From the NCBI GenBank assembly GCA_041601615.1, contig JBFIHX010000001.1:96001-160000 (forward strand): DNA of 64,000 bases, read 5' to 3'. The position numbers and the translations under genes were made by a program. The DNA comes from Thermoplasmatota archaeon. GTDB lineage: Archaea; Thermoplasmatota; E2; JACPAO01; JAHFTW01. Positions 30,182-62,393 of the stretch are shown in pieces. How positions within the stretch are numbered: the stretch's first letter is position 1; the number at the start of each line of letters is the position of its first letter. Under the pieces are notes generated by a model, which saw only the letters and a list, made by a program, of their open reading frames with translations, had not been told where the DNA came from and did no database searches.

Positions 30182-30274
30182 TCGTAGTACGTCCACGCAG
30201 GTGCAGTCACACTCCTCCATGTAACCCTCGTGCTGTGACGCGACCCTTATGTTCAGGCCCCGAGGTGGGGCGTT

Positions 30275-46531: not shown

Positions 46532-47395
46532 ATGGTGAAATTGGCTCTGGAAAAACTGCGCAATGGCGTGATGTTTCGGGTTCGTAGCCGCCTTGCCCAC
46601 AGACGCCCAGATCGAAAAGTGGAGATTTTCATAGTGGGGGCCCAGAAGGCAGGAACGACGGCACTTTTTGAAATTCTGAGCCATCATTCTGAAATTGCAG
46701 GCGCCGCCATCAAGGAAACCAATTACTATGGAAAAGGTGGAGATGCAGATTCGAGTGCATGGAACAATGTTGGGGGTTTTTTCCACCGAGGAGCATGGAA
46801 AGATCACCGCCTAAAGCTGATGGAAGCAACACCCCGCTACCTCTCGGATCCAGGCAGTCATGAGAAAATATTTGCACACAATACCAATGCAAAAATTATC
46901 ATTATTCTTCGCAATCCAGCGCAACGAGTTCTTTCGGCATGGACTATGTACCATGCCCATTTTAAGACAGGGCGATACGAGCATTACCACGATGCTCGCC
47001 CGTTTGCGCAAGTGGTTAAAGAGGAATTAGCCGCTCCAGGAGATGCGCAATCCAATCCGAAGGGCTATGTCCATCGAGGATTGTATTTGGAGCAGATTCA
47101 ACGGTACCAAAAGCAATTTGGCCAAGATCAGGTCATCATCCTGGAAAACGACGACCTCCGGAATGATTTTGACCGCGTCAGCCGCGAATTGCAAGAATTC
47201 CTAGGCGTGCAGTACGAACCCCTCCAACCTCGGCAAGCGAACCAACGGCGCGTGCAAAACCGAGAGAACTACCCGGAGCAGATGAAGCAACTGTACGCGT
47301 TCTTCGAAGGTCCGAACCATGCGCTGTTTCAGGCGCTCGGGCGCAGCTACCCCTGGGGGCCGCCCGAGGAGCCCGCCAAGGATGCAACCCCATAG
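46532..47395 (+). CDS. Sulfotransferase (Sulfotransfer_1, heparan-sulfate 3-O-ST-like)
   Basis: 5'-PSB GAQKAGTT, KE..Y, EATP.Y, 3'-PB RNP..R..S.W and RGLY.EQI. Confidence 0.88.
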   Translation: MVKLALEKLRNGVMFRVRSRLAHRRPDRKVEIFIVGAQKAGTTALFEILSHHSEIAGAAIKETNYYGKGGDADSSAWNNVGGFFHRGAWKDHRLKLMEATPRYLSDPGSHEKIFAHNTNAKIIIILRNPAQRVLSAWTMYHAHFKTGRYEHYHDARPFAQVVKEELAAPGDAQSNPKGYVHRGLYLEQIQRYQKQFGQDQVIILENDDLRNDFDRVSRELQEFLGVQYEPLQPRQANQRRVQNRENYPEQMKQLYAFFEGPNHALFQALGRSYPWGPPEEPAKDATP

Positions 47396-47450
47396 CGGCA
47401 TGGGGCCCGTCTAGTTCGAAGCGACTGGTTGTAGTGGATTCAATCGCGCT

Positions 47451-48359
47451 TTAGGGTTCCTGCCACAGAACGGGAAACACATCTGGATCCCGGTAGTCCG
47501 GCTTCCCTTGGGCGTCGCGCCTGCATAGGTGATCATAGCTGATGACAATCGGGGAGCCGTCGGGTGCCGTGGCGCCTTTGTACCGATTGTGCGCATCCTG
47601 ATAATGCACCGCCAGAGCCAGTCGATCTCGGCCGGACGTGTTGGACCCACTGGCATGGATGGTGCGGCAATTGTGGAAGCTGACTTGGCCACGTTTCACG
47701 GCGACTTGGATTCGGCGTGCGTTGGGGTGCGTTTGCTGCATCAATGCATCGAGGTCCCCGAGTTGCTGTCGGCCAAATCCAAACGCGCCCGCAAACGGAC
47801 CGTGATCCCACTGGTTGCTGCCCTCTACATAGACTGGCGTGCCCATGTCGACGGTGCAATCACTCAGCGCAATCCAGGCCGTGAGCATTCGAGTGGAGGT
47901 GCAAGTGGGCCAGTAGGCTTTGTCTGTGTGCCAGCCCACAACGGACCCTTCTGGACGGTCTGACGATGGGCGGCTTCGTTTCAAAAGAAGCGAGTCTGCA
48001 AAGTATCGAATCAGAGGCGTTTGCGCCAGTCGCGCAGCAGTGGCAACCACCATCGGATGGTATGCGAGGCTGGCGAGTGCATCGACGCGTAGTGCCACCA
48101 TTTCGTTGTTGATGAGGCGGACTCGCGTATCGTATGGATTGTCTGCTAGGTGCTCCATGCCGCGCAGTTCGTGGTCCCGGTGCCCCTCGTAGAATGCATG
48201 CGCTCCTGCGATGGCGGCTTCCAAGGTGGCGTCGTCGATGATGACGGGAGAAATGTGCCAACCAAGTCGTACGTAGGCTTGCACTTCCTCGGAGCTGGGC
48301 AGCAAGCTGATTTGCTCCGGCGACAAGTCCCTGGTGGTGCTTGCTTGTGGGGTACTCAT
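47451..48359 (-). CDS. PhyH-family Fe(II)/2-oxoglutarate dioxygenase
   Basis: WHTDKAYW (HxD), TAWIAL.D and G.VSFH...TIH.SG.N.S..DR. Confidence 0.85.
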   Translation of the reverse strand: MSTPQASTTRDLSPEQISLLPSSEEVQAYVRLGWHISPVIIDDATLEAAIAGAHAFYEGHRDHELRGMEHLADNPYDTRVRLINNEMVALRVDALASLAYHPMVVATAARLAQTPLIRYFADSLLLKRSRPSSDRPEGSVVGWHTDKAYWPTCTSTRMLTAWIALSDCTVDMGTPVYVEGSNQWDHGPFAGAFGFGRQQLGDLDALMQQTHPNARRIQVAVKRGQVSFHNCRTIHASGSNTSGRDRLALAVHYQDAHNRYKGATAPDGSPIVISYDHLCRRDAQGKPDYRDPDVFPVLWQEP

Positions 48360-49579
48360 CGCATCACATTCCGGAACCGGGCGCGCAATTCGTCTTCGTC
48401 GCCCTCAAGGATCAGCGAAGACATCTTGCGATGGTCGGTTTTGTTGGTGACTGGGTGGCTGGAGGTGCGAAAGTCGCCCATGCCAAAGTAGTGGTTGTCG
48501 AAGAATAGGAGGGTGCCCACAATGTAATCCTCGTACTCGACGCCCCCCACGGATCCCGAGATCAGGCGTTGTTCAATCCATTGCTGCAAGACGAGATTCT
48601 CTCGGCTGGGCCCATCCAGCAGAGTTTCCCACTCTTCTTGCGGCGTCACTTGGCCTGCGTAGACTTCCTGGCTTTTGCCAAGGATACGGTGTTTTATGAT
48701 CCACGCATCCTTGTTTTGCCGCGCATCCTGCCACAAATCCAATCGTTCCGTGGCCGTGTAGGTAGGCACCAGGAATCGCTGGAAAAACGCCCGCTCTTCC
48801 GGTTCCAACACATCCTGAAGCAGTTCTTCCTGGCAGAGGGTGGAAAAGAACCGCTTGTCGTGGATGAGGAATATGGTGCGCAGGTCGTTGATGGACCGCA
48901 TGCGTATGAGGCGAGCCAGAACGTCGTCTGGCAATCTCAGCAATTCATCGAAGGACAATTCGTAGATGATAAGGGGATTCTTCCAGGATGCGATGCGATT
49001 TGGAATCTCTTGGTACGGCACGCATTCCACATCTATGCCCATTCTCTCTAGGATGGGGACGAAGATTTTCGACTCGTTGCGTTTGTCTGCTCCTGTGGCT
49101 ACAACGACGCGGTCTGTTCCTTCCAGGTACGAATAGAGGTGCGCGTGGAGGGGGGAATCACGATCAACAAAAGCCGTGTCCGACGCGTGCTTGGCGTGAA
49201 AATCTCGAGTGAGTCGGGCCATGATGGTGGACAAGAAAATCCCATTGAGGCCCATGCGACATGTGATTTCGATCATGCGGGCTTGGCCCTCCGGATCGAA
49301 GACGAAGTCTGTGCGGTACGTTCCCGGACGGTACGGCACGTCGCGGTACATTTCGAGTACTTGTTCAATGCGAGGCGAAACCGGCATCAAGTGGCGGTAT
49401 CGAGGGTACTCGGTGACGAACCGGGTTACAAGCCGCTCCATGAGGCCTTGCAGCCGCACAAACTCGGCATCCACGCGGGCAGGAACAATGAACGGCTCAT
49501 CGAAGAGCCATTGCTGGTAGTACGGCGCCCGTTCCTTTGCCCATGCCGCAATGGCATCCTGCAGGGTTTTGAGTTCCAT
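48356..49579 (-). CDS. ATP-grasp-like ligase (glutathione/glutathionylspermidine synthetase-like fold), paralog 1
   Basis: RTDF...IEITCR, NDLRTIFLIHDKR, WIIKH...GKSQ.V.AG and VLQQWI. Confidence 0.65.
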   Translation of the reverse strand: MELKTLQDAIAAWAKERAPYYQQWLFDEPFIVPARVDAEFVRLQGLMERLVTRFVTEYPRYRHLMPVSPRIEQVLEMYRDVPYRPGTYRTDFVFDPEGQARMIEITCRMGLNGIFLSTIMARLTRDFHAKHASDTAFVDRDSPLHAHLYSYLEGTDRVVVATGADKRNESKIFVPILERMGIDVECVPYQEIPNRIASWKNPLIIYELSFDELLRLPDDVLARLIRMRSINDLRTIFLIHDKRFFSTLCQEELLQDVLEPEERAFFQRFLVPTYTATERLDLWQDARQNKDAWIIKHRILGKSQEVYAGQVTPQEEWETLLDGPSRENLVLQQWIEQRLISGSVGGVEYEDYIVGTLLFFDNHYFGMGDFRTSSHPVTNKTDHRKMSSLILEGDEDELRARFRNVMR

Positions 49580-49586
49580 CTACTGC

Positions 49587-49623
49587 TCCTGAATGGTTGC
49601 ATCGGATGCAAATACATTCAGGA
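49587..49623 (-). promoter_or_regulatory. Nested inverted repeat overlapping the SD of the ATP-grasp-like gene
   Basis: TCCTGAATG/CATTCAGGA (9 bp) encloses TTGCATC/GATGCAA (7 bp). One arm contains AGGA of the minus-strand SD. Confidence 0.55.
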
Positions 49624-49971
49624 CACCCGCACGGACGACCAGGGCCCCGATAAGCTCCAAAATGGGTGCCCCGGAAGCACCCCGGATCTCTCCTTTTCCC
49701 CTACTACTACGCATGCTGATGCGGCCAGGAATAGCTCGCTAATGAATGGGTTGGAACCCCTCCTGCATCAGCGCTAGAGTCGAGCGCACGGAATTTCGTG
49801 AAGGCCCGATGTTCCACTCCGTCCTGCTCGCCGTCGCCTCGCAATGTTCTGGACTGTCACCCCGGAAATTCCATAACAGATTTTTTCCTCGTGGATGCTA
49901 GGTGTTCCATTGATGCAAAGTCCATCCATGTGCGACCGTAGATGGTTTCCTAGGAACGACCAGGTGAGCAA

Positions 49972-50952
49972 ATGGATCGCAACATGAGCATTCTCCCCGG
50001 CAAACCACAAGGAAATTCGCAAGGAATGCCGCACCCCGTTGGCACCAAGGATTCGGATTTTATTGCATGGATCAACGCGACTTTGCGTGCGCCCGAGCGG
50101 GAGTACTTCACCAGCGAGACCCTGCACCCTACGGTGCATATCCTGGGGTTGCCAAGATCTGGGACCACGTTGGCTTCGCAACTTTTGGTCCGACACCTCG
50201 ACATTGGGTATGTGAGCAACCTGGCGGCCATGTTTGGCAGCGCACCCGCGACGGGTGTGCGAATGCAAAAATTCTTGGGGTTGCGCCCGGGCCAAGCCCC
50301 TTTGGAGTCGACCTTTGGAAAAACACATTCCTTGGATGAGCCCCACGAATTTGGGTACTTCTGGCGGGATTTGCTGGGGAATGATGGCGGGCAGGAGGAG
50401 CCCACGCAGGAGCAGCGAGACGCCGTGGACTGGCCGAGTGTACGCGACAGCATGGCGCGCATTACAGGCGCTTGGGGTGGACCGGTTCTTTTCAAACCCT
50501 TCATTCTTGCATGGTATGCCAAGGAATTCGTAAGTCAAGTTTCATCCAGCTACTTCCTCTGGGTTCAAAGAGACCTAACTCAAATTTGCATATCAATGTG
50601 GGAAATGTACAAACAACAGGGCGAAAATAGTTTCCGAACCCAATCCCTCCAGCCTTCGTCCATCGGCAAGGACCCGTTGGAGCGAGTGGTGCGCCAGGCA
50701 AGTCTACTCCACGAGGCTTTGGAAAGGAATTTGGCGCGGGTGCCCGCCGAAAGGCTCGTTCGCGTGGCCTACGCAGATTTGTGTACGAATCCCGCCGGCC
50801 TCATCGACGTTGTGCAGAACAAAATGGCGATGGAAGGAGCCCACCTGAACCGACTTTCCTGGCCACCTGCTGCACAAAAAATTCGAACGTGGGATGCCGG
50901 CAAGGACCCGGACCACCGTCGGATAGCGGACTTGGTCGCGTCCATGGGCTAG
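49972..50952 (+). CDS. Sulfotransferase family protein
   Basis: HILGLPRSGTTL, P.EFG.FW, RD....S and Y.DL..NP. Start may be 50026. Confidence 0.85.
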   Translation: MDRNMSILPGKPQGNSQGMPHPVGTKDSDFIAWINATLRAPEREYFTSETLHPTVHILGLPRSGTTLASQLLVRHLDIGYVSNLAAMFGSAPATGVRMQKFLGLRPGQAPLESTFGKTHSLDEPHEFGYFWRDLLGNDGGQEEPTQEQRDAVDWPSVRDSMARITGAWGGPVLFKPFILAWYAKEFVSQVSSSYFLWVQRDLTQICISMWEMYKQQGENSFRTQSLQPSSIGKDPLERVVRQASLLHEALERNLARVPAERLVRVAYADLCTNPAGLIDVVQNKMAMEGAHLNRLSWPPAAQKIRTWDAGKDPDHRRIADLVASMG

Positions 50953-50986
50953 CTGGCCCAGTTGAATGCGCCATTCTTGCGGGATT

Positions 50987-51724
50987 TCAAGGAGTGATTT
51001 CGCGGCGTGCCTTCAAAAGCTCCCGCGTTCCCTCTGCGCCCAAATGCATGAGCGTGTCGATGATGGATGCAAGAGGCCGCCCCTGGGCCTGGACCGCTTC
51101 CGTTGTGGGTCCAACGAAGCGTAGCTTGAGTCCGTTTTTTTCAAACGATTCACGCCGATACAACTCGGTCCCACCCATAGGATTCAGATAGGCTCCGGCC
51201 CCCTCGCGTTGGCAGAATTCTATGATGCGTTGCTCCATGGGCTCCAGGCCTGCTTGTTTGGCTCGTTCCTGTAGGCCCTCCTCCACGTCGAGAAACATGT
51301 CATCGCCACGCACCACGGGCGTGTCAATGCCAATCAGAGAGCACATTTCCCGAATGTTTTCGAGATTGTACGCTCCAATGCGCTGCTCCTGGCGATGGAT
51401 CATGTTCTCCAAGGCTGGGTATATTTCATTGAAATGGGGCGCATGACGATAATTCAGGTCAATCGTCTCCAGAGTGCGTCGGCGCCAGGTTCCGTCTCGC
51501 AGCACGCGAATGTCTCTGATTCGAGTAAAGGAGGATTGGCCAGAAACGTCCGCTCGAATCCAGATTGGTTTCTTGGATGTTTTACCGATGACTTGATTGC
51601 GAGTAATCCAGGAGCTTTTCCGGAAATTGAAATTGCCATAGACCACAAATCGATCCGCCGCATCGATAAGTTGGAAGTATCCCAGGTAAGGGAAAAAATA
51701 GGGTTGCATCACTGCTAAGCGCAT
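50987..51724 (-). CDS. WbqC-like protein, paralog 1
   Basis: MQPYFFPYLGYFQLI...D.FV, WITRN, Y..AP.F, YLNP.GG.ELY and SIIDTLM. Confidence 0.9.
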   Translation of the reverse strand: MRLAVMQPYFFPYLGYFQLIDAADRFVVYGNFNFRKSSWITRNQVIGKTSKKPIWIRADVSGQSSFTRIRDIRVLRDGTWRRRTLETIDLNYRHAPHFNEIYPALENMIHRQEQRIGAYNLENIREMCSLIGIDTPVVRGDDMFLDVEEGLQERAKQAGLEPMEQRIIEFCQREGAGAYLNPMGGTELYRRESFEKNGLKLRFVGPTTEAVQAQGRPLASIIDTLMHLGAEGTRELLKARREITP

Positions 51725-52042: not shown

Positions 52043-52774
52043 TCATGACTCCTGCCTAGCCGAAAGCAAATTGTGGGTTCCTTCAAAACCTGCGTGCATG
52101 AGGGTATCAATGATGGAGATCAGGGGACGACCCAGTTGGGTTGCAGCTTCGGAAGATGGCCCAACGAATCGTAAGTCGATGCCATGGGCCGCCAAATCCT
52201 CCTTGCGATACAGCTCCACGCCCCCAGGAGGGTTGAGAAACGCCGTGGCCCCCTCTATTTTGCATATATCGACGACGCGCTGGACCCTTGGCTCCAATCC
52301 AGACGCCTGCGCCCTTGCTTCTAGGTCTTTTTCCGCGGCGACATACGCATCATCGTCGTGCATGATGGGCGTGTCGATTCCGATGAGGTTGCAGATGTGG
52401 CGAATGTTTGCCACGTTGTACTTCGCCAAATTGGTTTCTTCTCGCATAACCATTTTTTCGACTTCTGGATACACATCATTGAAGTAATGTGCTTTTTTGT
52501 AATAAAAGTACGCTTGATTAAGAATTCTTGTGCGCCAGTCATTGTTGTCGGAAATTTCTACCGTCCGGATGAGAGCATATGAGGACTGGTTTTTCACTGG
52601 GACACGAATCCAGGAAGGATCCGGAGCGCCGCGTTTTTGAAGTTGATTGCGCGAAATCCATGAATTTTTACGGAAAGTGACGTTTCCACTGAACAAGAAT
52701 TTATCAGCGGCGTCGATAAGCTGGAATTGCCCCAGATACGGGAAAAAGTAGGGCTGCATAACTGCTAGGCGCAT
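52043..52774 (-). CDS. WbqC-like protein, paralog 2
   Basis: MQPYFFPYLGQFQLI, WISRN, FLNPPGG.ELY and SIIDTLM. Confidence 0.9.
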   Translation of the reverse strand: MRLAVMQPYFFPYLGQFQLIDAADKFLFSGNVTFRKNSWISRNQLQKRGAPDPSWIRVPVKNQSSYALIRTVEISDNNDWRTRILNQAYFYYKKAHYFNDVYPEVEKMVMREETNLAKYNVANIRHICNLIGIDTPIMHDDDAYVAAEKDLEARAQASGLEPRVQRVVDICKIEGATAFLNPPGGVELYRKEDLAAHGIDLRFVGPSSEAATQLGRPLISIIDTLMHAGFEGTHNLLSARQES

Positions 52775-52775
52775 G

Positions 52776-53486
52776 CTAGCTCCGGTTCTCCCAAGGCATC
52801 GATTCTACGTCCGAATCGACCCCCAAAAAGGCCTTGATGCGCGACACGGCGTTGGCATCGCGCACGTTGACAACCAAGAGCTGTTCGGGCCGGTCAGCAA
52901 AATGTCGCTGAATCTCCTTGTTGTGTTGGATGTACGAGTCCATCATTTGTGCTTGGTTGTAGAGGTCGTTTTCCGGTGGATCATACAACAGTTCATGGAT
53001 GCGCCAAGCTGCGCCGGGCCGGACGTAGGTTGCGCGCTGCAAGTCTTGTTTGGTCGGGGCATTCCCATCGACACCGAACAGCTTCGTTTGATATCGAAGG
53101 TTGGACTGGTACCACTGCTCAGGGCTGTCTCGAACGGTGAGGATGAATTTGGCTTCGGGGAACGCCGCGTCGAGCGCCTTGTAGGTTCCAGGCAGGCTAA
53201 ACGGTAGGTCTTGGAACGCCTCGCCTCGAAACCGCGCCAGTCGAATGATGCGCCGGAACTCGCCCCGTCCCCAATCCTCCATTAATTTCTCTCCGGCCGC
53301 CTGTGGCCCCATGTGGAAGCCGAATTGCCGCAGGAGTTGTTCGAGGCTCGTGGTTCCCGTCTTGTTGCGACCTATGCAGAACACCTTCCGGCTGTTTCTG
53401 AAGCGCAATGCATCCCGAGGGAGCGTGGCGGCATTGAGAACCCGGCGGGCGAATTTTCGTGCAGGCGTGGCATGAAGTAGGGTCAT
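52776..53486 (-). CDS. Sulfotransferase family protein (Sulfotransfer_4-like), paralog A
   Basis: KVFCIGRNKTGTTSL, QDLP, FP.AKFILTVRD..E.WY.S and HN.....F.DRP..LL. Confidence 0.82.
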   Translation of the reverse strand: MTLLHATPARKFARRVLNAATLPRDALRFRNSRKVFCIGRNKTGTTSLEQLLRQFGFHMGPQAAGEKLMEDWGRGEFRRIIRLARFRGEAFQDLPFSLPGTYKALDAAFPEAKFILTVRDSPEQWYQSNLRYQTKLFGVDGNAPTKQDLQRATYVRPGAAWRIHELLYDPPENDLYNQAQMMDSYIQHNKEIQRHFADRPEQLLVVNVRDANAVSRIKAFLGVDSDVESMPWENRS

Positions 53487-53499
53487 GGATTTGGTGCTC

Positions 53500-54237
53500 C
53501 TAGCTTGCGTGTTGGCTGTGGTTCACGTGTGGCTGCAACACAGCCGTACGCCCTTTGTGTACGAAGGAATGAACTTGCTCGCGCGCATCGGGCGCATGTA
53601 CGTCAACGGAAAGGAACGCTTCCGGGCGGTCCTTGAAGTACGCAGCCACCTCGCGGTTGTGCTGTTCAAAATGGCCCACCAAAATGTCCCGATTGAAAGG
53701 GTCGTCAGCGGGCGTTTGATGGATGGTTTGATGGGCGTGCCACAGCCACCCCGGGCGATGGTAGGTAGCAGCAATCAGTTGTTCTCGCGTCGGCACAGCT
53801 CCATTTCCAAACGTCTTGGAGTAGAATTGCAGCACGGCATCATACCACGCGTTCGAGTCGCGGGTGGTGAGGATGAATTGGCTCTTCGGGAACGATTTGT
53901 CCAAGACCGCATAGACGCCGGGCAGGCGGTAGGGCAGGTCCTGAAACACATTTCCGCCTCGCCCCACGTGGTCGATGATGGCTTGGTGGTCGCCTTCAGC
54001 CCATGCGTCGACGAGCGCTTCTCCAGCCGCCTGGGCTCGGTGATTATAGCCCTCGGAGCGAAGCCATGATTCGACGGTAGAACTGCCGGTTCGATTCTTA
54101 CCAATCAAAAAAATGCGCGGAGCGTTGCTTCCGATCCTGCGGCATGGAACCGCAAATCGGTTGCCAGCCATGGTGCGAAGGCGCTTTTGCAATCGAGCAA
54201 GAATGGACAATGTGGTGTCGTTTCTCGTCGAGTTCAC
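53500..54237 (-). CDS. Sulfotransferase family protein (Sulfotransfer_4-like), paralog B
   Basis: RIFLIGKNRTGSS, QDLP, FILTTRDS..WY and HN.EV..YF.DRP. Confidence 0.78.
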   Translation of the reverse strand: MNSTRNDTTLSILARLQKRLRTMAGNRFAVPCRRIGSNAPRIFLIGKNRTGSSTVESWLRSEGYNHRAQAAGEALVDAWAEGDHQAIIDHVGRGGNVFQDLPYRLPGVYAVLDKSFPKSQFILTTRDSNAWYDAVLQFYSKTFGNGAVPTREQLIAATYHRPGWLWHAHQTIHQTPADDPFNRDILVGHFEQHNREVAAYFKDRPEAFLSVDVHAPDAREQVHSFVHKGRTAVLQPHVNHSQHAS

Positions 54238-55376
54238 GGCGCAACCCCGCTTGGCGCGGGTGCTGGTGCACCTACCGAATCTTCGGCCGATTCCAAAAGT
54301 GCTGCCCGGAGAATCTTGACAATGCGCTCAACTTGTTCGTCTTCCAAGCCCACATAGAGGGGCAGGCAAAGGATGGTGCGCGACACCTCGTGGGACACGG
54401 GTGCGTGGGCAGCCGGCAGGTACGCAACCTCGTCCAGGGACGGGTAAAAGTAGCGCCGGGACTCGATGCCTTCCTTCCGCAAGCGCTCCATGCAGGCAAG
54501 CAAACTTGCTTCGTTTGCAAACAGCACCGGCATGTAGGCGTGGTTCCAAGTCGTGCCTTCTCGGATTTTTGGATAACGAAGACCGGAACCCGTCAGCAAT
54601 TCGTGGTAGAGGGCAACGAGTCGGCGGCGCTCCTCCCGGATTCGGGGAAACTCGTCAAGAACCGCTAGTCCCATCGCCGCGTGGGGTTCGGACATTTTGG
54701 CGTTGATGCCGGGTCCATCAAAGGAATCGGGGCCGATCTGGCCAAAGGATACCGCGGGCCGCAGTCGAGTTTTCAAGGACTCATCAGGGACAAACATGGC
54801 GCCGCCTTCTGCCGTGTGAAACAGTTTCGTGGCGTGGAAGCTACAGGTGCTGACATCGCCGTACTCGAATAGCGAGCGCCCCTTGTATTCCACGCCGAAA
54901 CAGTGCGCCGCATCATAGAGGACGAACAGGTTGTGGCGCCGCGCAATGTCTTCGATTGCTTCGATGGCGCTGGGATTTCCAAAGACGTGGGTGGCGAGGA
55001 TTGCCGTAGTTTGGGGCGTAATGGCTGCCTCAATCAGGGTCTCGTCTATGGTAAGATGCTCTGGGTCGATGTCTACGAATACCGGAGTGCAACCTTCCCA
55101 CGCTATGCTCGAAGCCGTTGCAATGAAACTGAACGGCGTGGTGATGACCTCGCCTCGCCCAGCCAAGCGATTCAAAGCGATTTGCAGCGGCACCGTGCCG
55201 TTGCAAGTAAGAACCGGTTCCGAGGAACGCAGTGCCACGGCAATACGTTCCGTGAGGCGGCGGACCAAGGGCCCTTGGTTGGTGAGCCAAGCAGCATCCC
55301 ACGCGGATTGGATGTGTTGCGTGTACGCCTCCAAGGAAGGCATGAAGGGCTTGGTGACTGGAATGACTGAAGCCAC
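54234..55376 (-). CDS. DegT/DnrJ/EryC1/StrS PLP aminotransferase (VioA-like, dTDP-4-amino-4,6-dideoxyglucose synthase)
   Basis: IPVTKPFMP, WLTN.GP, ITTPFSF.AT, YDAAH, SFHATK.F.T.EGG, GINAKMSE and RRYFYPSL. Confidence 0.9.
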   Translation of the reverse strand: MASVIPVTKPFMPSLEAYTQHIQSAWDAAWLTNQGPLVRRLTERIAVALRSSEPVLTCNGTVPLQIALNRLAGRGEVITTPFSFIATASSIAWEGCTPVFVDIDPEHLTIDETLIEAAITPQTTAILATHVFGNPSAIEAIEDIARRHNLFVLYDAAHCFGVEYKGRSLFEYGDVSTCSFHATKLFHTAEGGAMFVPDESLKTRLRPAVSFGQIGPDSFDGPGINAKMSEPHAAMGLAVLDEFPRIREERRRLVALYHELLTGSGLRYPKIREGTTWNHAYMPVLFANEASLLACMERLRKEGIESRRYFYPSLDEVAYLPAAHAPVSHEVSRTILCLPLYVGLEDEQVERIVKILRAALLESAEDSVGAPAPAPSGVAP

Positions 55377-55393
55377 GATTCTCCTTCGATTCT

Positions 55394-56323
55394 CTACGAC
55401 GCACCCACGATAGCAGTTGCGGAGCTAGGGTGGTCGAACAGTCGAATGCGAAGCAAGTGCCGGTTCGGGTCCGTAAAGGCGCTCCTGCCGTGCAGGGTTG
55501 TCTTGTTGTTGATGAAGATCAAGTCCCCGGTTTTCAGGTGAAACTGGATGGTGGATTCGCATTCCAAGATGATTTTCTTGAGCGATTCAAACGCCTCCAC
55601 CTGTTCTTTGGTGACAAAGTCCGGTCGGCTCGCGATGGCTTTGGCGATGGTGTCGACGCGGAAGCGAATGCCTGCATCTGTGAGAATCGGGCCGTGGTTG
55701 AACTCGTGCGTCTGGGTCGCATTTGTATTGAAAACGTTGGGAACCACGAATGGGAAGTCCGTGGTGCGCAAGATTTCCTCGATGCGGGCGCCGTCGGGTT
55801 GGGCCCGAAGTTTGCAAAGAATGTCGTGCAAATGCAGGAGTTGGGATGCTCCGCCGCCGCATTGGGCGGGGCGCAGGGTCATCAATGCGAAGGAATCCTC
55901 TGGGCGTGCACTGTATTGGCTGTCCGTATGTAGATCAGCATCGTGGTTGTGCTCCGAGTAGGTTTTGATGAGGTTGTCGGAGCTGGCGTTCATTCGGATG
56001 TCCCAGACGATTTTATCACCGACATGGGGCGCGGGAGTACCGACGCGGGCGCACAGGTTCTCAAACGCAGCGCGGAGGCTGGCCTCATTTTCGTAGGCAG
56101 CGTCGAAATGTTCCAGGATGATGTGCCCTTCGTCTCGAAGCGCTTCTTGGACCAGCGGGGCAAGGTCGGCTGGGCTGCATTGATAGGTGCGAGCGTCACA
56201 CGTCAGGAGGCTCGTTCGGGCGCTATCATGACTCCCCCGAGCCGGCTCCTGGTGCTCCGTGCCGGATGGGTCCGGAGGCGCGCCTGAGCCTGTGCATGAT
56301 TCCACGAAATTTTCACTCTGCAT
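55394..56323 (-). CDS. TauD/TfdA (clavaminate synthase-like) Fe(II)/2OG dioxygenase
   Basis: LHTD (HxD), GG.S, GDL...NN...LHGR and RHLLR. Confidence 0.85.
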   Translation of the reverse strand: MQSENFVESCTGSGAPPDPSGTEHQEPARGSHDSARTSLLTCDARTYQCSPADLAPLVQEALRDEGHIILEHFDAAYENEASLRAAFENLCARVGTPAPHVGDKIVWDIRMNASSDNLIKTYSEHNHDADLHTDSQYSARPEDSFALMTLRPAQCGGGASQLLHLHDILCKLRAQPDGARIEEILRTTDFPFVVPNVFNTNATQTHEFNHGPILTDAGIRFRVDTIAKAIASRPDFVTKEQVEAFESLKKIILECESTIQFHLKTGDLIFINNKTTLHGRSAFTDPNRHLLRIRLFDHPSSATAIVGAS

Positions 56324-56571
56324 TTTGTAATAACCGTTGCGGAGCCCCGGGCCAGTACCAAGGTTCGCCGAGGGGGTTTTTCAGCCATTGATTGGAGCCT
56401 TTTTCCGAGCCCTGTGCATTCAAATTTCCAAGGCGACGCAATGCCGCGATGCTGCTGCACATGGCCCAAAATCCCCCTACGCAAAATTCGCCAAAACAGG
56501 CATTCATGGTCGCCACCGGAACCCCAACAGCCATAATGGGACCCCTCGTGGGACGAAATGTGTCATCCCCC

Positions 56572-58269
56572 ATGGTCTCGGCAATCCCCACCGGACATGC
56601 CGACCTTCAACACGATTCGCAGCGAAAAATGGAGCTTATGTCTCTCGTTTCTTCCATGCAATCATGGGACCTAACGGAGCGTCAGCTCTGCGACATTGAG
56701 ATGATTCTCAACGGTGCATTCGCGCCTCTTACCGGATTCCTCAACAAGGACGATTACGAGTCTGTGTGTGCAAACATGCGCCTTGCCGACGGCAGCCTAT
56801 GGCCCATGCCGATTACGCTGGACGTACCGGAAACCTTCGAGGCCGCAGTGGGTGACCGCGTTGCTCTGCGCAACCCCGAGGGCGCCGTGGTCGCCATTTT
56901 GACCGTGGGAAGCCGCTGGAGCCCGGACAAGCAAGCCGAGGCTCAGCAAGTGTTCGGAACCACCGACACCACGCACCCCGCCGTTGCCTACCTCATGAAC
57001 AAGGCCGGCGCCGTGTACCTCGGCGGCAGCCTCGAACTGATGGAGGGCATCCGCCACCACACGTTCCAACGCGACCGCCACACCCCCGCCCAAATGCGCG
57101 CCCTCATCCAAGAGATGGGATGGCAAAAGGTCGTCTGCTTCCAGACACGCAACCCCCTGCACCGCGCCCACTTTGAAATCACCCAACGCGCCGCCCGCAA
57201 GGAAGGCGCCGCCTTCGTGCTCAACCCCGTAGTGGGTATGACCAAGCCCGGTGACGTGGAGGCCTACAGCCGCGTGCGCTGCTACCGCGCCGTCATGAAC
57301 CGCTACGACCAGTCCACCAGTGTCCTGAGCCTGCTGCCGCTGGCCATGCGCATGGGCGGCCCCCGTGAGGCGGTCTGGCACGGCCTCATTCGCCGCAACT
57401 ACGGCTTTACCCACTTCATCGTCGGCCGCGACCACGCTGGCCCCGGCAACGACGCCAACGGCGAGCCTTTCTACGGCCCCTATGACGCCCAGGAACTGTT
57501 TGCGACCCACGAGGCAGAAATCGGCCTCAAAATGGTGGACTTCCAATTCATGGTCTACGTGGAGGACCGCGACCAGTACATGACCGTCGATGAGGTGCCC
57601 GAGGGCGCCAAGACCCTGAACATCAGCGGCACCGAGCTGCGTCGCCGACTGCGCGAAGGCGCGGAGATTCCGTCCTGGTTCAGTTTCCCCGAAGTCGTCG
57701 AAGAACTGCGCCGAGAATTCCCGCCGATGTCCCAGCGCGGCGTGACCATCCTGTTTACGGGCCTGTCTGGCTCCGGCAAATCAACGGTGGCCCAGACGCT
57801 CATGGCCAAACTCTTGGAGGAAGGCAGCCGCCCCGTGACGCTCCTCGACGGGGACGTGGTGCGCAAGAACCTCAGCAGCGAACTGGGTTTCTCCAAGGAA
57901 CACCGCGACCTCAACATCCAGCGCATCGGCTACGTGGCCAGTGAAATCTGCAAGAACCGCGGCATCGCGATTTGCGCCCCCATCGCGCCGTACGACTCCA
58001 CGCGCAAGAGTGTCCGTGCGGCCAACGAGGCCGTCGGTGGTTTCGTGCTGGTGCACGTAGCGACTCCTCTCGAAACGTGCGAGGCGCGCGACCGCAAGGG
58101 CCTCTACAAGTTGGCCCGCGACGGAAAGATCAAGGAATTTACCGGCATCAGCGACCCGTATGAGGTTCCTGAGGATGCCGACGTGGTCCTAGACACGACC
58201 CACAGCACGCCCGAGGATGCGGCGCAGGAAATCTATCTGCACCTTCGGTCGAAGGGCTACATCCAGTAG
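56572..58269 (+). CDS. sat-cysC: Bifunctional sulfate adenylyltransferase / adenylylsulfate kinase (PAPS synthase)
   Basis: LWPMPITL, FQTRNPLHRAH, VGRDHAG, ISGTELR, P-loop GLSGSGKST and FTGISDPYE. Confidence 0.95.
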   Translation: MVSAIPTGHADLQHDSQRKMELMSLVSSMQSWDLTERQLCDIEMILNGAFAPLTGFLNKDDYESVCANMRLADGSLWPMPITLDVPETFEAAVGDRVALRNPEGAVVAILTVGSRWSPDKQAEAQQVFGTTDTTHPAVAYLMNKAGAVYLGGSLELMEGIRHHTFQRDRHTPAQMRALIQEMGWQKVVCFQTRNPLHRAHFEITQRAARKEGAAFVLNPVVGMTKPGDVEAYSRVRCYRAVMNRYDQSTSVLSLLPLAMRMGGPREAVWHGLIRRNYGFTHFIVGRDHAGPGNDANGEPFYGPYDAQELFATHEAEIGLKMVDFQFMVYVEDRDQYMTVDEVPEGAKTLNISGTELRRRLREGAEIPSWFSFPEVVEELRREFPPMSQRGVTILFTGLSGSGKSTVAQTLMAKLLEEGSRPVTLLDGDVVRKNLSSELGFSKEHRDLNIQRIGYVASEICKNRGIAICAPIAPYDSTRKSVRAANEAVGGFVLVHVATPLETCEARDRKGLYKLARDGKIKEFTGISDPYEVPEDADVVLDTTHSTPEDAAQEIYLHLRSKGYIQ

Positions 58270-58290
58270 GACAAGGAGCCTATTGAGTCT

Positions 58291-58330
58291 GGGGTCCGGT
58301 GTTGCACTGGGCCCCGGGCTACCTTTTTCA
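58291..58330 (+). terminator. Hairpin plus T-tract after sat-cysC
   Basis: GGGGTCCGGTG-TTG-CACTGGGCCCC stem (includes G-U pairs), followed by CCTTTTTCA. Confidence 0.4.
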
Positions 58331-58393
58331 TTTGCTTGCCCGAAGGCAAACCTAGGGCCGCCCAACGCCTCGGCTGCCGTGCCTTTAGAGGCT

Positions 58394-59218
58394 TCAGGCC
58401 AGGACTTGGACCGTAAGTTCCGATGCAACTTCTGCCATGACACGTTCCTTGCCAGCGATGTACGTTTGAAGAATCGATGCGACATCGTAGTCTTCTAGCG
58501 AGGCGCCGCTGGCCGCCACCCAGTGACCAATGGCGTCGATGGCGTGGAAGAAGTGGTTGCGTTCCGTCGGGCCTGTGTGTACTTTGATCCAGGCGAGCGA
58601 CGACGCGGGGACCTCGGGGTAGTGGGCCGCAAGCCAATCCGAAAACAGGCCCCAAATGAATTCCACCTCTCCGTGGGTGTAAATTTCATGGCAAAGGGTC
58701 GTTAGGAGACCCACGAGAATATCGGGGTCTTGGAGGGAATTGTGGTCCTTCCAACCCTTGAACGACTTGGCACTTTCTCGAAGGTGTGCCCGCGATTGCC
58801 ACTGGTCATCTCCCGTGATCTGGGTGGCCATGCGGTAGAAGAGCTCGGAGTGTAGAATGTTGCCCACTACGGCTAGGTCCTCGTCCACGATGCGGTTGAG
58901 GCTCGCCACAGAGCGCGCTAGGTGGGCATGGTCTACGGAGTCGTCTCCTTGGTGGATGAGCATGGTGCATCGGTTGCTCAATCCGGCCACCGTCACCGCG
59001 CTGTTGTTTGTGAGGGCCCAGTTGTGGAAGAACACTCGCAGCGCTTCCGGGGATTGGCGCTTCGAAGTGAGCTGACGGAAGGATTCGCAGATGCGATCCA
59101 GGCGCGGTTCGTCCTCCCGGACCTGCTGAATCAGGCGGTCGCGCAGACCCCCCGGCGGCATCCCTTCAAGGACAAGTAGGACGGCGTCGGAAATCGACTC
59201 AGGGCGCAAGTCACGCAT
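58394..59218 (-). CDS. Heme-oxygenase-like diiron (HDO) superfamily protein
   Basis: Helical protein with E-x9-H (DEDLAVVGNILH), a central E (CHEIY) and H-x4-E-x2-H (VHTGPTERNH) ligand pattern. Confidence 0.65.
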   Translation of the reverse strand: MRDLRPESISDAVLLVLEGMPPGGLRDRLIQQVREDEPRLDRICESFRQLTSKRQSPEALRVFFHNWALTNNSAVTVAGLSNRCTMLIHQGDDSVDHAHLARSVASLNRIVDEDLAVVGNILHSELFYRMATQITGDDQWQSRAHLRESAKSFKGWKDHNSLQDPDILVGLLTTLCHEIYTHGEVEFIWGLFSDWLAAHYPEVPASSLAWIKVHTGPTERNHFFHAIDAIGHWVAASGASLEDYDVASILQTYIAGKERVMAEVASELTVQVLA

Positions 59219-59276
59219 ATGGGAATCCAAGTTCCGGGGTAGATAAACCATCCTGAATTGCAATTGCGTCAACCGC

Positions 59277-60191
59277 TTACCAGAGTGGCCCACGGCCCAA
59301 AAACTCGAACAAGCGGGCATCGGGTTCGGCAAAGAATGCGCGCAATCGTACCTCGGTTTCCTTGGGCATTGGCTCTGCGTACGGACGTGCGTGGACTTGC
59401 GGGAATTGCTGGGCTGCCCAATCCATCGGTTGCAATCCCAAAAAGTTCGTCACTTCGTCCATGACGCCTGCTGCGTTGTGGCGCATATCGGCCATGTGGA
59501 TTACATGCAATTGATCGCGGGGAAAGTATTCCAGGTACCGTTGAATCTGCTCAAGGTACAAGCCTCGTCGTAGGAAACTTGGTTCCGCCGGCGGATTGGA
59601 CGTTTCCATCAATGCCATTTCCTCCTCCACTGCGTCCGCAAACGAAGGTAATTCGCCTCCGAGCAATCGTCGCACCCATGCAGCGGAGTCGTGGTTCAAT
59701 CGGTCCATGAGCATCGCCAGATCGGCCCTCCCGTGGCGCGTCTCATTGAGATTCCGATACATGTTCCACTGGGAGTAGGCCCGTTTGACCGGATCTCGGA
59801 CCATGGCAATCAAGCGCGTCGAGGGATCGTATTCGTGGATGCGAGCGGGGACGGCCTGGCCGTACAAGTGTGCGGACGTAGCGTCGATGGCGATGCCATT
59901 TTTTGGCATTTGAAACGGCAGCGGAAACCGGGCGTGGTACCCTGCCAAGCCCTTGGCGTATCGCGCATCCACGTTGAAGTGGTTCAATTCTTTCCGGTCG
60001 GCCAATCGAACCTGTGGGTGACGGTTTAGGTAGGCGGCGATGGCAGAGGTGCCCGACTTTTGTGCGCCAAGAATCATGACGCTTGGGCAAACGTGGTACC
60101 CGAGCCGGCTTGTCACCTGCCCGACGGCTGTGCGCGATTTGAGGTACGATTGCCTCGTGAAGTGTTGAATTCGTTTGATTCCGTATGCCAT
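59277..60191 (-). CDS. Sulfotransferase (Sulfotransfer_1-like), paralog of 46532
   Basis: GAQKSGTS, KELNHF, RDPVKRAYS.W and RGLYLEQIQRY. Confidence 0.88.
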   Translation of the reverse strand: MAYGIKRIQHFTRQSYLKSRTAVGQVTSRLGYHVCPSVMILGAQKSGTSAIAAYLNRHPQVRLADRKELNHFNVDARYAKGLAGYHARFPLPFQMPKNGIAIDATSAHLYGQAVPARIHEYDPSTRLIAMVRDPVKRAYSQWNMYRNLNETRHGRADLAMLMDRLNHDSAAWVRRLLGGELPSFADAVEEEMALMETSNPPAEPSFLRRGLYLEQIQRYLEYFPRDQLHVIHMADMRHNAAGVMDEVTNFLGLQPMDWAAQQFPQVHARPYAEPMPKETEVRLRAFFAEPDARLFEFLGRGPLW

Positions 60192-60296
60192 GCAATCGTG
60201 TCCCTGCTACTTCTTGCCCGCCGCTCGGCGTGCTAGTGGCCCAGGGGCTTTAGACTCGCGGGTAGGTCATAGGGCATAAATTGTGCTTCCCGGTGG

Positions 60297-61553
60297 ATGC
60301 TTCTCATCGTGCAAGACAGCTCGGCGCGTGGCGATAAGAATCGATTCGTGGATGCCTTGAAATCCCCCGTTCGGCAGAGGGCGGACAACTTCACGCCGTG
60401 GACGTTCGAGGAGCCCCTTTGGATCCGCAAGAGTACGGATCAAGATTTTGCGCGTTTGCAGACGCTCATGGTCCGCTTGATTCGCAGGCTTGTCCAAGAC
60501 TATCGAAGCTATGCACACATCATGCCCCTTGATGAGCGGGTGCAAGCGATTCTTGATTTGTGGGAGCCTCGACCCTACCGCGTCGGCACCTACCGGACCG
60601 ACTTCGTCATTGATCGCGGAGGACAGGCCCGGATCATCGAGATTACTTGCCGCTATGCCCTGAATGGCAATTCCACGACTCTTGTCATGAACGAAATGGG
60701 TCGACGGTTTCGTGCGTCGCGGGGAGACTTCGAGGCGCCACAGGATCGCTCGGAACCGCTTCTGCGTCGGTTGTGCTCGTTGCTGGATGGGGTGCGCAAA
60801 TTCTGCATCCTCCAAGGAGCCGATGACCGAAACGACTCCAAGTTGCTCTTGGAACCTTTGCGGGCGGCGGGGTACGAAGTGGAAGTAATTCCGTGTGCGA
60901 TGATTCCGTCGCGCATCGACGATTTGGATCAGGAGGATTGTCTCGTGGTTAGCGAACTGGCCGTGTCGGAGATCGTGGGCTTGGGCATCGAGGTGAACCG
61001 ACGACTGGCACGAATGAACGTCATCAACGACTACCGCACGGTAATTCTCATTCATGACAAGCGGTTCTTTGCCGTGATGGGGGATCCGGAGTTCCTGGCT
61101 TCGGAGCTCAATGACGAGGAGACGGCGTTCTTTCGCAGATTCTACATTCCAACCTTCAGCGCTACGCAACGCCCCGACTTGTGGAAGCAAGCGCCGGAGG
61201 AGAAGGATCGTTGGATTGCCAAGCATCGCAATTTGGGCATGAGCCAGCGGTTGCTAGCCGGCCCCGTGGCAACTCCAGAGGAATGGCGGGCGTTTCTGGC
61301 AGCCGACGATGCTCGAGACTTGACCTTGCAAGCGTGGGTGGAGACCCTGCGCGTCGAGTCCAGGTTGGGCGACGAGGAGCGGTCCGACTATCTTGTCGGG
61401 ACGTTCATGTTCTTTGACGACGAGTACTTCGGCCTCGGCCCTTTCCGACTGTCTAGTTTTCCCGTGACCAACCTTGCCGACGACCGCAAGGCGTTCGGCA
61501 TGGTCGGCGACGCCCAACCTCCAGAAGGCGTGCATCCGATCCTGATGGTGTAG
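60297..61553 (+). CDS. ATP-grasp-like ligase, paralog 2 (of 48356)
   Basis: GTYRTDF...IEITCR..LNG, NDYRTVILIHDKRFF, WIAKHR.LG.SQ and DY.VGT..FFD..YFG. Confidence 0.65.
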   Translation: MLLIVQDSSARGDKNRFVDALKSPVRQRADNFTPWTFEEPLWIRKSTDQDFARLQTLMVRLIRRLVQDYRSYAHIMPLDERVQAILDLWEPRPYRVGTYRTDFVIDRGGQARIIEITCRYALNGNSTTLVMNEMGRRFRASRGDFEAPQDRSEPLLRRLCSLLDGVRKFCILQGADDRNDSKLLLEPLRAAGYEVEVIPCAMIPSRIDDLDQEDCLVVSELAVSEIVGLGIEVNRRLARMNVINDYRTVILIHDKRFFAVMGDPEFLASELNDEETAFFRRFYIPTFSATQRPDLWKQAPEEKDRWIAKHRNLGMSQRLLAGPVATPEEWRAFLAADDARDLTLQAWVETLRVESRLGDEERSDYLVGTFMFFDDEYFGLGPFRLSSFPVTNLADDRKAFGMVGDAQPPEGVHPILMV

Positions 61554-61577
61554 GCGAAAGCAGCGTCGACTTGCGTC

Positions 61578-62393
61578 TTAGAGCTTGGTCGATGGCTTGG
61601 CAAATTGGGTCCAGTCCGTACCCGGTGCTCCTGCAATGAAGTGCGGATTACGCCAGTCCCCGTGGCCATAGCGAAGCGGCAGCCCTTCGAGATCCGTGAG
61701 GGTGCCGCCTGCGCCAAGAAGCACGGCGTTTGCTGCGGCGGTATCCCAGTGCATCGTGGGCCCAAGTCGAGGATAGACGTCGGCGGCGCCTTCGGCGACC
61801 CGACAGATCTTGAGGCTGGATCCATAGGAGTGCTCCGAGACTTGGTAGCCGCTGGCAGCCAGGGCTTCCACGTATCGGTCCACGTCGGGGCCACGGTGGC
61901 TGGTGCTGGCCACCACACGGCAGTCGCGGCCCTGAAGCGGCGGGCATGAAATTGGCTCCCAGGAACCGTTTTGCAGGCTCGATGCGCCCTCTCCCGGCAC
62001 ACCCCACCATGCCTCGTTCAAGACGGGCGCTGTGACCATACCGGCCACGGCTCGACCATTCTGCACCAGAGCAACATTGACCGTCCATTCGTCGCGGCCT
62101 TTCAGAAACTCCTTGGTGCCATCCAACGGGTCAATGAGCCAGAATGCATCGCCGGTCTCCCGTCCCGAGCCTTCTTCGGACACCACGGGCAAATCGAGGA
62201 CGCTTGCCAATCCGCCATCCAGGACCTTATGCGAAGCCAAGTCCGCCGCCGTTACTGGGGAGCGGTCGTCCTTGCTCTCGACTCCAATGGCGCCCGACGA
62301 GAGAAATTCTTGGCGCAGTTTCATTATTTCCTCGCCCGCCATCTCTACCAGCGGCAGCAGGCGCGTGCAAAGGTCCGCAGGAAGTGGCTTCAC
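61578..62393 (-). CDS. cysQ: 3'(2'),5'-bisphosphate nucleotidase CysQ (PAP phosphatase)
   Basis: SPVTAAD, SEE, WLIDPLDGTKEF, GSSLK.C.VAEG and YPRLGPT..WDTAA. Confidence 0.92.
   Translation of the reverse strand: MKPLPADLCTRLLPLVEMAGEEIMKLRQEFLSSGAIGVESKDDRSPVTAADLASHKVLDGGLASVLDLPVVSEEGSGRETGDAFWLIDPLDGTKEFLKGRDEWTVNVALVQNGRAVAGMVTAPVLNEAWWGVPGEGASSLQNGSWEPISCPPLQGRDCRVVASTSHRGPDVDRYVEALAASGYQVSEHSYGSSLKICRVAEGAADVYPRLGPTMHWDTAAANAVLLGAGGTLTDLEGLPLRYGHGDWRNPHFIAGAPGTDWTQFAKPSTKL

Follow-up and report, generated by a model that had tools for sequence, protein, structure and literature searches.

A stretch of 64,000 nucleotides from a marine Thermoplasmatota archaeon (NCBI GenBank assembly GCA_041601615.1, contig JBFIHX010000001.1, positions 96,001 to 160,000; hereafter the window, with its first letter as position 1) contains an ordinary Wzx/Wzy sulfated-glycan locus with a conserved, uncharacterised tailoring module, which includes a Cp1B-type ligase and has been laterally acquired by the archaeon. 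The source genome is 2.79 Mb in size, is divided into 30 contigs and is 93% complete, and the window lies in contig C1. The module is a conserved cassette of seven members, namely the ligase, a WbqC protein, two Fe(II)/2-oxoglutarate (Fe/2OG) dioxygenases of the PhyH and TauD families, a DesI/VioA-like sugar aminotransferase (DegT), a family 2 glycosyltransferase (GT2) and the flippase Wzx, with or without Sulfotransfer_4 sulfotransferases. The copy of the archaeon is full but rearranged, and its WbqC and ligase genes are duplicated (Table 1).

A bacterial cassette around a Cp1B-like ligase

A search with a ligase profile through 185,579 species, each represented by one genome, has identified 46 loci, each taken with up to 10 kb on either side, and their content has been determined by tblastn with the window proteins, the GT2 being added by clustering of open reading frames (ORFs). 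All 46 loci are bacterial and belong to Bacteroidota, Balneolota, Verrucomicrobiota, Lentisphaerota, Kiritimatiellota, Chloroflexota, Ignavibacteriota, Bacillota and Pseudomonadota. The cassette is a bacterial module found in at least seven phyla and is not special to archaea; an earlier reading of this DNA made from the sequence alone (the sequence-only reading) had not recognised such a pathway as described, least of all in an archaeon. WbqC is present in 37 of the 46 loci and adjoins the ligase on the same strand in 29 of the 37, and PhyH is present in 24 loci and adjoins the ligase in 23 of them. TauD occurs in 27 loci, DegT in 25, Wzx in 24 and GT2, usually between PhyH and TauD, in 20. 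Fourteen of the 46 loci, and 13 of the 27 that are at least 20 kb long, contain WbqC, PhyH, TauD and DegT all together, and the typical order in Bacteroidota is DegT-Wzx-WbqC-ligase-PhyH-GT2-TauD. Homologs of the sulfotransferases ST3 and ST4 recur in 11 loci, of ST2 in four and of ST1 and ST5 in two, and homologs of the heme-oxygenase-like diiron oxidase (HDO) candidate, sat-cysC and CysQ are each found in none. Some loci from Chloroflexota, Cytophagia and Ignavibacteriales (L042, L039 and L028) carry two ligase genes and/or two WbqC genes together with an ST2-like sulfotransferase gene and are without PhyH and TauD; therefore, the duplication of ligase and WbqC in the archaeon has bacterial parallels. 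Literature searches have found no description of a ligase-WbqC-PhyH-TauD-DegT cassette, and a paper on the O antigen of Tenacibaculum maritimum mentions none of these genes.

The sequence-only reading had placed a tailoring cassette of two ATP-grasp-like ligases, PhyH, TauD, an HDO, two WbqC proteins and a VioA-like aminotransferase between five sulfotransferase genes, sat-cysC and cysQ at 46532-62393, and all of these genes are present at or near the positions it gave, those other than the ligases and the HDO candidate being recognised by Pfam and NCBIfam scans. The gene arrangement described there also holds: ligase A and PhyH share 4 bp at the ligase stop and are translationally coupled, and TauD heads the run TauD-DegT-ST4-ST3-WbqC2, in which the intergenic gaps are 17, -4, 13 and 1 bp. 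The linkage of ligase homologs to wbqC, vioA-like and glycan genes, by which that reading was to stand or fall, is seen in the WbqC, DegT and Wzx counts given above. Its predicted co-occurrence holds for WbqC, PhyH, TauD and DegT with the ligase but not for HDO, and of the five sulfotransferases only the Sulfotransfer_4 pair ST3/ST4 recurs with the cassette. The extent of the cassette has also changed, since a seventh member, GT2, lies outside 46532-62393. The window GT2 is 33% identical (E 3e-48) to the GT2 of a Tenacibaculum locus (L005), which is placed between PhyH and TauD.

The two ligases of the window, ligase A and ligase B, are 44% identical over 385 residues. Neither has a match in the Pfam copy searched; ligase homologs bear the Pfam label PF28486. 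A sequence search of the PDB has returned one solved match, Cp1B (9cjn), with E 9.9e-8 for ligase A and E 3.1e-4 for ligase B, and a 39-sequence ligase profile matches Cp1B with E 3.6e-20 and covers both of its halves. The AlphaFold model of ligase A has a predicted local distance difference test score (pLDDT) of 91.7, and its best Foldseek match is again Cp1B (9cjn; E 1.5e-22, query TM-score (TMq) 0.75), followed by human, yeast and plant glutathione synthetases, GspS (glutathionylspermidine synthetase) and YgiC/YjfC. As judged from the model, the ligases are homologous to Cp1B and have its three-domain, glutathione-synthetase-type ATP-grasp fold, in agreement with the assignment of the sequence-only reading.

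According to PMC12568646, Cp1B is a biochemically validated ATP-grasp enzyme that joins trans-epoxysuccinate, an oxidised dicarboxylic acid that an Fe/2OG oxygenase produces, to the amine of an L-amino acid, and alanine substitution of R139, D141, E163 or N165 abolishes or attenuates its activity. Arg-89, Asp-91 and Glu-104, which are invariant in the ligase family, align with R139, D141 and E163 of Cp1B in the profile alignment, indicating that three of the four needed residues are kept; the numbering of the Cp1B PDB chain is offset by 15 from that of the publication, as deduced from the alignment. Cp1B, an enzyme of the fungal E-64 pathway, shares its fold with the window ligases, as well as the acyl-phosphate-site motifs R-x-D and E, though not N165, and an RF..NG motif downstream; Cp1B also works beside an Fe/2OG oxygenase, but the identity is only about 18%. 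Moreover, the partners of Cp1B are an amide synthetase of the ANL (acyl-CoA synthetase, non-ribosomal peptide synthetase adenylation domain, luciferase) superfamily and a decarboxylase, whereas those of the window ligases are WbqC, a sugar aminotransferase, GT2 and Wzx, encoded by bacterial and archaeal genes. No ANL gene, such as an E-64-type (cp1) cluster would contain, is seen in the locus. There are no other members of the ligase family in the genome of the archaeon, and a search of the longer proteins has found no fused ligase forms, though this is weak evidence. A quick maximum-likelihood tree has been made from 83 ligases and keeps three very long rows (L031, L035 and L036) that are probably badly called ORFs; both window ligases branch basally within its glycan-cassette clade, without being resolved as sisters. 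A predicted complex of ligase A with WbqC-1 has an ipSAE of 0.00 in two runs (alignments A1 and A3) and has been used neither way.

Acquisition by the archaeon

The partial small-subunit ribosomal RNA of the genome (contig C2) scores best with the archaeal model (747.9 bits), the other models of the clan overlapping it with lower scores, and the left flank of the window consists of archaeal-type genes, DUF373 and MptE-like. The ligase is found in none of 60 archaeal relatives from genus to class level, many of which are incomplete genomes, and WbqC is found in one of the 60. DNA synteny with two genomes of the same genus runs from position 1 to about 25.6 kb of the window, and none is seen from 25.7 to 60 kb except for a part of sat-cysC (56656-57739), which has 79% DNA identity to one of them (G001). 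The contig depth of this part is about doubled in all four metagenome runs. Since it alone matches same-genus DNA between 25.7 and 60 kb, PAPS (3'-phosphoadenosine-5'-phosphosulfate) synthesis would seem to be common to the lineage, and the tailoring genes to be variable within it. Native sequence flanks the region on both sides. The other same-genus genome (G002) has the DUF373 gene with 94% identity and the gene at 63055-63807 with 79% identity, and this second gene is matched in 11 of the 20 relatives searched. The GC content of the cassette genes is 0.50-0.59, compared with 0.617 in the native flank and 0.60-0.63 in rmlAB, ugd, sat-cysC and cysQ. Because of the absence of the ligase from the relatives, the break in synteny, the native flanks and the difference in GC content, the region is best described as a strain-specific glycan island with a tailoring cassette acquired from bacteria, whereas the genes for sulfate activation and dTDP-sugars look native. 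A tRNA-Glu gene marks the right edge of the strain-specific region, and it is possible that it has been an integration or recombination anchor of the island.

The stretch from 44 to 64 kb is covered by contigs of four marine metagenome DNA runs from one study. By depth, 30 of 30 bins are covered in each of the runs X1 to X3 and 28 of 30 in X4, and one of these runs may be the source of the genome. A contig of 3,083 bases from a different run spans CysQ, the tRNA gene and the native flank. Three contig joints with sides of 21-25 letters have been treated as noise, and no RNA runs are listed among the matching metagenome runs.

Predicted chemistry and rival explanations

RmlA and RmlB pass their equivalog cut-offs and no rmlC or rmlD is seen among the ORFs scanned; therefore, a dTDP-4-amino-4,6-dideoxyhexose is a reasonable product of the pathway, as the sequence-only reading had proposed. 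The best solved relative of DegT is DesI (2po3; E 5.8e-64). Enterobacterial Qui4N (viosamine) pathways, for example that of E. coli O121, likewise combine RmlA/RmlB with a VioA-type aminotransferase and WbqC, but the window locus goes beyond them in having the Cp1B-like ligase, two Fe/2OG dioxygenases, an HDO-fold protein and five sulfotransferases. E. coli O antigens are described in PMC7685785 as containing amide-linked glycine, N-acetylglycine (O121), alanine, N-acetylserine and allo-threonine. WbqC-domain proteins are called functionally uncharacterised in PMC5532660, and literature searches have found no WbqC assay and no confirmation that WbqC attaches glycine in O121. A WbqC of Streptomyces is encoded in an operon with a dedicated paralog of prolyl-tRNA synthetase, its tRNA, a family 4 glycosyltransferase (GT4), LmbE and MurG (PMC10404621), which by analogy suggests aminoacyl-tRNA-dependent transfer by WbqC, although this is our inference and not a claim of that paper. 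WbqC-1 and WbqC-2 of the window are 53% identical. The WbqC family is present in 197 of 201 sampled Flavobacteriaceae genomes, in which the ligase has one true match; therefore, WbqC functions in genomes that lack the ligase, whereas the ligase usually has a WbqC as its neighbour, and this distribution fits a ligase that extends what WbqC does. Most WbqC copies in these Flavobacteriaceae (G061-G265) are ORFs of about 210 residues that match only the first 140 or so of 218 model positions, and about 29 of the genomes also have a full-length match of more than 185 bits. That the short form is found in nearly all of them suggests a housekeeping function, with no relation to variation of the O antigen.

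Both dioxygenases keep the residues of their families. In 24 PhyH sequences, H144-x-D146...H229/H235 and R246 are conserved, corresponding to the His-x-Asp...His triad and the 2OG-binding Arg, and in 17 TauD sequences H132-x-D134...H278 and R288/R292 are conserved. Among solved proteins, PhyH is closest to SnoK (E 3.2e-17) and SnoN (E 2.8e-15), and EvdO2 also matches. SnoK, SnoN and EvdO2 act on sugars. SnoK and SnoN of nogalamycin biosynthesis belong to the same PhyH family as the window protein, but their substrate is an anthracycline-bound amino sugar, whereas the window PhyH gene, which lies in a polysaccharide locus, is coupled to that of an ATP-grasp ligase. The best NCBIfam match of TauD is GlaH (NF002814) with 36.4 bits, far under the 333-bit cut-off, and so TauD is not a GlaH/CsiD equivalog; its best matches, all weak, are hydroxylases of free acids or amino acids (GlaH, TMLD, BBOX, GntD and VioC). 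A 2-hydroxyglutaryl amide made through a GlaH-like TauD has been considered and dropped on account of this low GlaH score. The sugar-acting relatives of PhyH and the free-acid and amino-acid hydroxylases matched by TauD suggest that either the building block of the side group or the sugar may be oxidised by these two enzymes.

The HDO candidate matches no Pfam family and, by sequence, no PDB entry, solved HDOs included. Its model has a pLDDT of 92.2, and the Foldseek matches, led by UndA (E 4.4e-4, TMq 0.60), comprise UndA, PolF, CADD-like proteins, BesC, TenA, PqqC and HmuO with TMq of 0.47-0.64. The heme-oxygenase-like fold assigned by the sequence-only reading is thereby upheld, the helical fold being that of the diiron oxidases UndA, PolF, BesC and CADD (TMq 0.5-0.64); TenA and PqqC, which bind no metal, have similar scores. 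E124, H134, H188, E189, H193, E195, E197, H225, E230 and H233 are invariant in 36 HDO sequences, and five invariant His and more than six invariant Glu/Asp residues lie on the core helices and are candidates for a diiron ligand set such as the three His and three carboxylates of known HDOs. The protein is likely to be an HDO-type metalloenzyme, as predicted from the model. That reading had also made HDO a member of the cassette, and this does not hold: besides its absence from the 46 loci, HDO is absent from five cassette-bearing bacterial genomes searched, and in the 201 Flavobacteriaceae there is one marginal partial match (E 4.7e-4), counted as no real match. A metagenome scan with an HDO profile has yielded 74 loci (L053-L126), 54 of them with at least 1,300 bp downstream, and in 52 of these 54 a distant ligase paralog, about 25% identical to ligase A, directly follows the HDO gene. 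Clustering of the 41 HDO loci of at least 8 kb gives HDO in 39, this paralog (ligase') in 36, GT2 in 37 and an AMP-binding-like ANL protein in 31. Thus the HDO family belongs to a separate HDO-ligase'-GT2-ANL operon (for example, L059:9995-14215), and the HDO-linked ligases form a clade of their own in the 83-ligase tree, with 97 in the Shimodaira-Hasegawa-like approximate likelihood ratio test (SH-aLRT). Among 120 loci examined, HDO stands beside a cassette-type ligase only in the archaeal window. The combination of oxygenase, ATP-grasp ligase and ANL protein in the separate operon mirrors the E-64 pathway with a glycosyltransferase added, and nine HDO loci have a radical SAM/SPASM gene and a methyltransferase gene just upstream.

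The explanation favoured here, which is judged moderately probable, is N-acylation of dTDP-viosamine, in which WbqC and the ligase would attach an oxidised acyl or aminoacyl unit, followed by transfer, sulfation, flipping and polymerisation of the sugar. RmlA, RmlB and DegT would make the dTDP-4-amino-4,6-dideoxyhexose (viosamine). The cassette has no acetyltransferase, and the amine is for this reason most likely acylated by WbqC and the ligase, which together would equip the 4-amine with an acyl or acyl-aminoacyl group in amide linkage, the ligase activating a carboxylate as an acyl phosphate in the manner of Cp1B. TauD and the ligase-coupled PhyH may act as hydroxylases either on the building block, an acid or amino acid, or on the side group once it is complete, and HDO may supply or edit a second unusual acid for ligase B. 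The cassette GT2 would add the decorated sugar to the lipid-linked repeat unit, the five sulfotransferases would add sulfate, with sat-cysC feeding and CysQ clearing the pathway, and the unit would be flipped by Wzx and polymerised by Wzy. A bolder version, which is tentative at best, extends the logic of E-64 to nucleotide sugars independently of non-ribosomal peptide synthetases. An unusual oxidised acid made by an oxygenase would be joined to an amino acid by the Cp1B-type ligase, and WbqC, possibly aminoacyl-tRNA-dependent, would take the place of the ANL synthetase on the 4-amine of viosamine to give a sulfated pseudodipeptidyl sugar at the cell surface; such a pathway would be widespread in marine bacteria and would have been passed to a planktonic archaeon, in which a second ligase would have been recruited to act with an HDO removed from its usual HDO-ligase-GT2-ANL operon.

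The likeness of PhyH to SnoK and SnoN, with EvdO2 also matching, and the recurrence of Sulfotransfer_4 genes in the cassettes are what one would expect if PhyH, and possibly TauD, acted as SnoN and SnoK do on the amino sugar of nogalamycin, hydroxylating C-H bonds of the sugar ring or epimerising it by a radical route, so that new hydroxyls were sulfated while WbqC and the ligase added a simple amide. This is considered unlikely, since PhyH adjoins the ligase wherever it occurs in all but one of the loci and is coupled to it in the window, which points to a shared small substrate or product, and since the matches of TauD, though weak, are to hydroxylases of free acids and amino acids. The Ugd-like gene of the locus raises another possibility, namely that the ligases amidate the C6 carboxylate of a uronic acid of the polymer, made by a Ugd-like route, with an amino acid or amine, WbqC and DegT serving a separate sugar. 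Acyl-phosphate chemistry suits any carboxylate, and ATP-grasp amidoligases acting on glucuronic acid are established, for example the amidoligase domain of Cj1438 in Campylobacter jejuni (PMC11800379). The amidoligase Cj1438C of C. jejuni capsule biosynthesis forms an amide on a glycan building block (PMC11800379), but its fold type differs, and the window ligases are standalone enzymes of the glutathione-synthetase type tied to the pathway of an amino sugar. Only one of the 46 loci has a Ugd homolog less than 10 kb from its ligase, far fewer than have WbqC or DegT, and uronic-acid amidation is accordingly rated as improbable, a little more so than action on the sugar ring. Finally, the homology of the ligases to Cp1B, together with a pairing of oxygenase and ATP-grasp enzyme that mirrors the cp1 cluster, could mean that a free E-64-like pseudopeptide is made and that the position in a glycan locus is incidental. 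This is very improbable, because the ligase is embedded among WbqC, DegT, GT2 and Wzx across several bacterial phyla, a search of the archaeon's own genome (93% complete) with the ANL protein of the HDO operon has found no ANL amide synthetase, and no exporter or resistance gene of the metabolite-cluster type is seen among the ORFs scanned.

Several observations weigh against the favoured N-acylation of viosamine. SnoK and SnoN, the nearest solved relatives of PhyH, modify the sugar ring and not an acyl group. WbqC has no PDB match by sequence or with a 31-sequence profile; nine of the 46 ligase loci have no visible WbqC, and three loci (L025 of 8.1 kb, L036 of 11.2 kb and L044 of 21.2 kb) have no other cassette gene at all. 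DegT scores 252 bits with the NCBIfam DesI model, under the equivalog cut-off of 650 bits, and Asn165 of the Mg/phosphate site of Cp1B is replaced by an invariant Thr (Thr106) in the ligase family. Since HDO is missing from the cassette loci and both window ligases fall within the cassette clade, it is by proximity alone that HDO is paired with ligase B. ST3/ST4-like proteins are the only sulfotransferases that recur with the cassette. The grade given to the favoured explanation applies to acquisition, cassette and mechanism as a whole; its chemistry is inferred throughout.

The locus and its significance

Since an initiating phosphoglycosyltransferase, Wzx and Wzy are all present, the locus is, by its predicted gene products, of the Wzx/Wzy type (Table 1). 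The gene set for PAPS-dependent sulfation is complete, with five sulfotransferases above the Pfam cut-offs, PAPS synthesis by sat-cysC and removal of PAP (3'-phosphoadenosine-5'-phosphate) by CysQ, and these genes support the prediction that the glycan is sulfated. A scan of 46-62.7 kb for promoters and terminators has given no signal above shuffles. A GC-rich hairpin of 16 pairs followed by a T run lies at 58286-58320 between the convergent sat-cysC and HDO genes and is probably a bidirectional terminator, although the terminator scan as a whole is not above shuffles. An antisense ORF at 60267-61226 (- strand), opposite ligase B and without a family match, is regarded as spurious. The three proteins in the left part of the strain-specific region (25700-33082) may be surface or membrane proteins tied to the glycan.

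Table 1. Features of the glycan locus in window coordinates, with the matches that identify them
Feature	Position	Strand	Evidence and remarks
495-residue protein	26165-27652	-	No family
616-residue protein	27693-29543	-	Weak DUF6541 match
935-residue protein	30275-33082	+	CARDB match
Initiating polyprenyl-phosphate glycosylphosphotransferase	33229-34881	-	Pfam Bac_transf, 199 bits; NCBIfam TIGR03025, 320.7 bits (cut-off 295.55)
Two GT4 glycosyltransferases	34878-36125, 36122-37267	-	Pfam Glycos_transf_1, Glyco_trans_1_4
Wzy-type polymerase	37230-39395	-	Pfam Wzy_C, 54 bits (cut-off 31.7); start codon uncertain
GT2, homolog of the cassette GT2	39258-40316	+	Pfam Glycos_transf_2, 75.6 bits
rmlB	about 41183-42196	+	TIGR01181, 405.4 bits (cut-off 365.1); several start options
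rmlA	42193-43080	+	TIGR01207, 464.7 bits (cut-off 360.65); 4-bp overlap with rmlB
Ugd-like nucleotide-sugar 6-dehydrogenase	43149-44447	-	Pfam UDPG_MGDP_dh domains; TIGR03026, 392.9 bits (cut-off 189.8)
Wzx-type flippase	44659-46278	-	Pfam Polysacc_synt_3, 291.5 bits
ST1 sulfotransferase	46532-47395	+	Sulfotransfer_1, 63.3 bits; start at 46532 is M; GxxKxGTT motif (PAPS loop)
PhyH Fe/2OG dioxygenase	47451-48359	-	Pfam PhyH (PF05721), 77.2 bits (cut-off 22)
Ligase A, 407 residues	48356-49579	-	Predicted-structure match to Cp1B; glutathione-synthetase-type ATP-grasp
ST2 sulfotransferase	49972-50952	+	Sulfotransfer_3, 50 bits
WbqC-1	50987-51724	-	Pfam WbqC (PF08889), 178.1 bits (cut-off 21.3)
WbqC-2	52043-52774	-	Pfam WbqC (PF08889), 177.2 bits (cut-off 21.3)
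ST3 sulfotransferase	52776-53486	-	Sulfotransfer_4, 68.9 bits
ST4 sulfotransferase	53500-54237	-	Sulfotransfer_4, 42.1 bits
DegT sugar aminotransferase, DesI/VioA-like	54234-55376	-	Pfam, 267.3 bits
TauD/TfdA Fe/2OG dioxygenase	55394-56323	-	Pfam TauD (PF02668), 77.6 bits (cut-off 27)
sat-cysC, bifunctional ATP sulfurylase/adenosine-5'-phosphosulfate (APS) kinase	56392-58269	+	NF004040, 864.4 bits (cut-off 669)
HDO candidate, 285 residues	58394-59251	-	Predicted structure; annotated start is M28 of a long ORF
ST5 sulfotransferase	59277-60191	-	Sulfotransfer_1, 65.2 bits; 25 bp upstream of the HDO gene
Ligase B, 418 residues	60297-61553	+	Paralog of ligase A; 105-bp spacer to the divergent ST5-HDO pair
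CysQ PAP phosphatase	61578-62393	-	TIGR01331, 233.1 bits (cut-off 228.8)
tRNA-Glu(UUC)	62529-62602	-	ARAGORN; 135 bp beyond CysQ

The amino sugars of O antigens and capsules often bear amide-linked amino acids or unusual acyl groups, and the enzymes that install them are mostly uncharacterised. In the module described here, WbqC and an aminotransferase of the viosamine type have a Cp1B-type ligase and two Fe/2OG oxygenases as neighbours, and cultured carriers in Arenibacter, Tenacibaculum, Flavicella and Marinomonas make the question of its function testable. The cultured carriers of the cassette include Arenibacter aquaticus, A. nanhaiticus, Tenacibaculum aquimarinum, Flavicella sediminum, Marinomonas sp. 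GJ51-6 and Polaribacter sp. WD7. The separate HDO-ligase-GT2-ANL operon merits a study of its own. The cassette provides a first glycan context for the Cp1B ligase family and is a clear example of the transfer of glycan-tailoring genes from bacteria to a marine archaeon.

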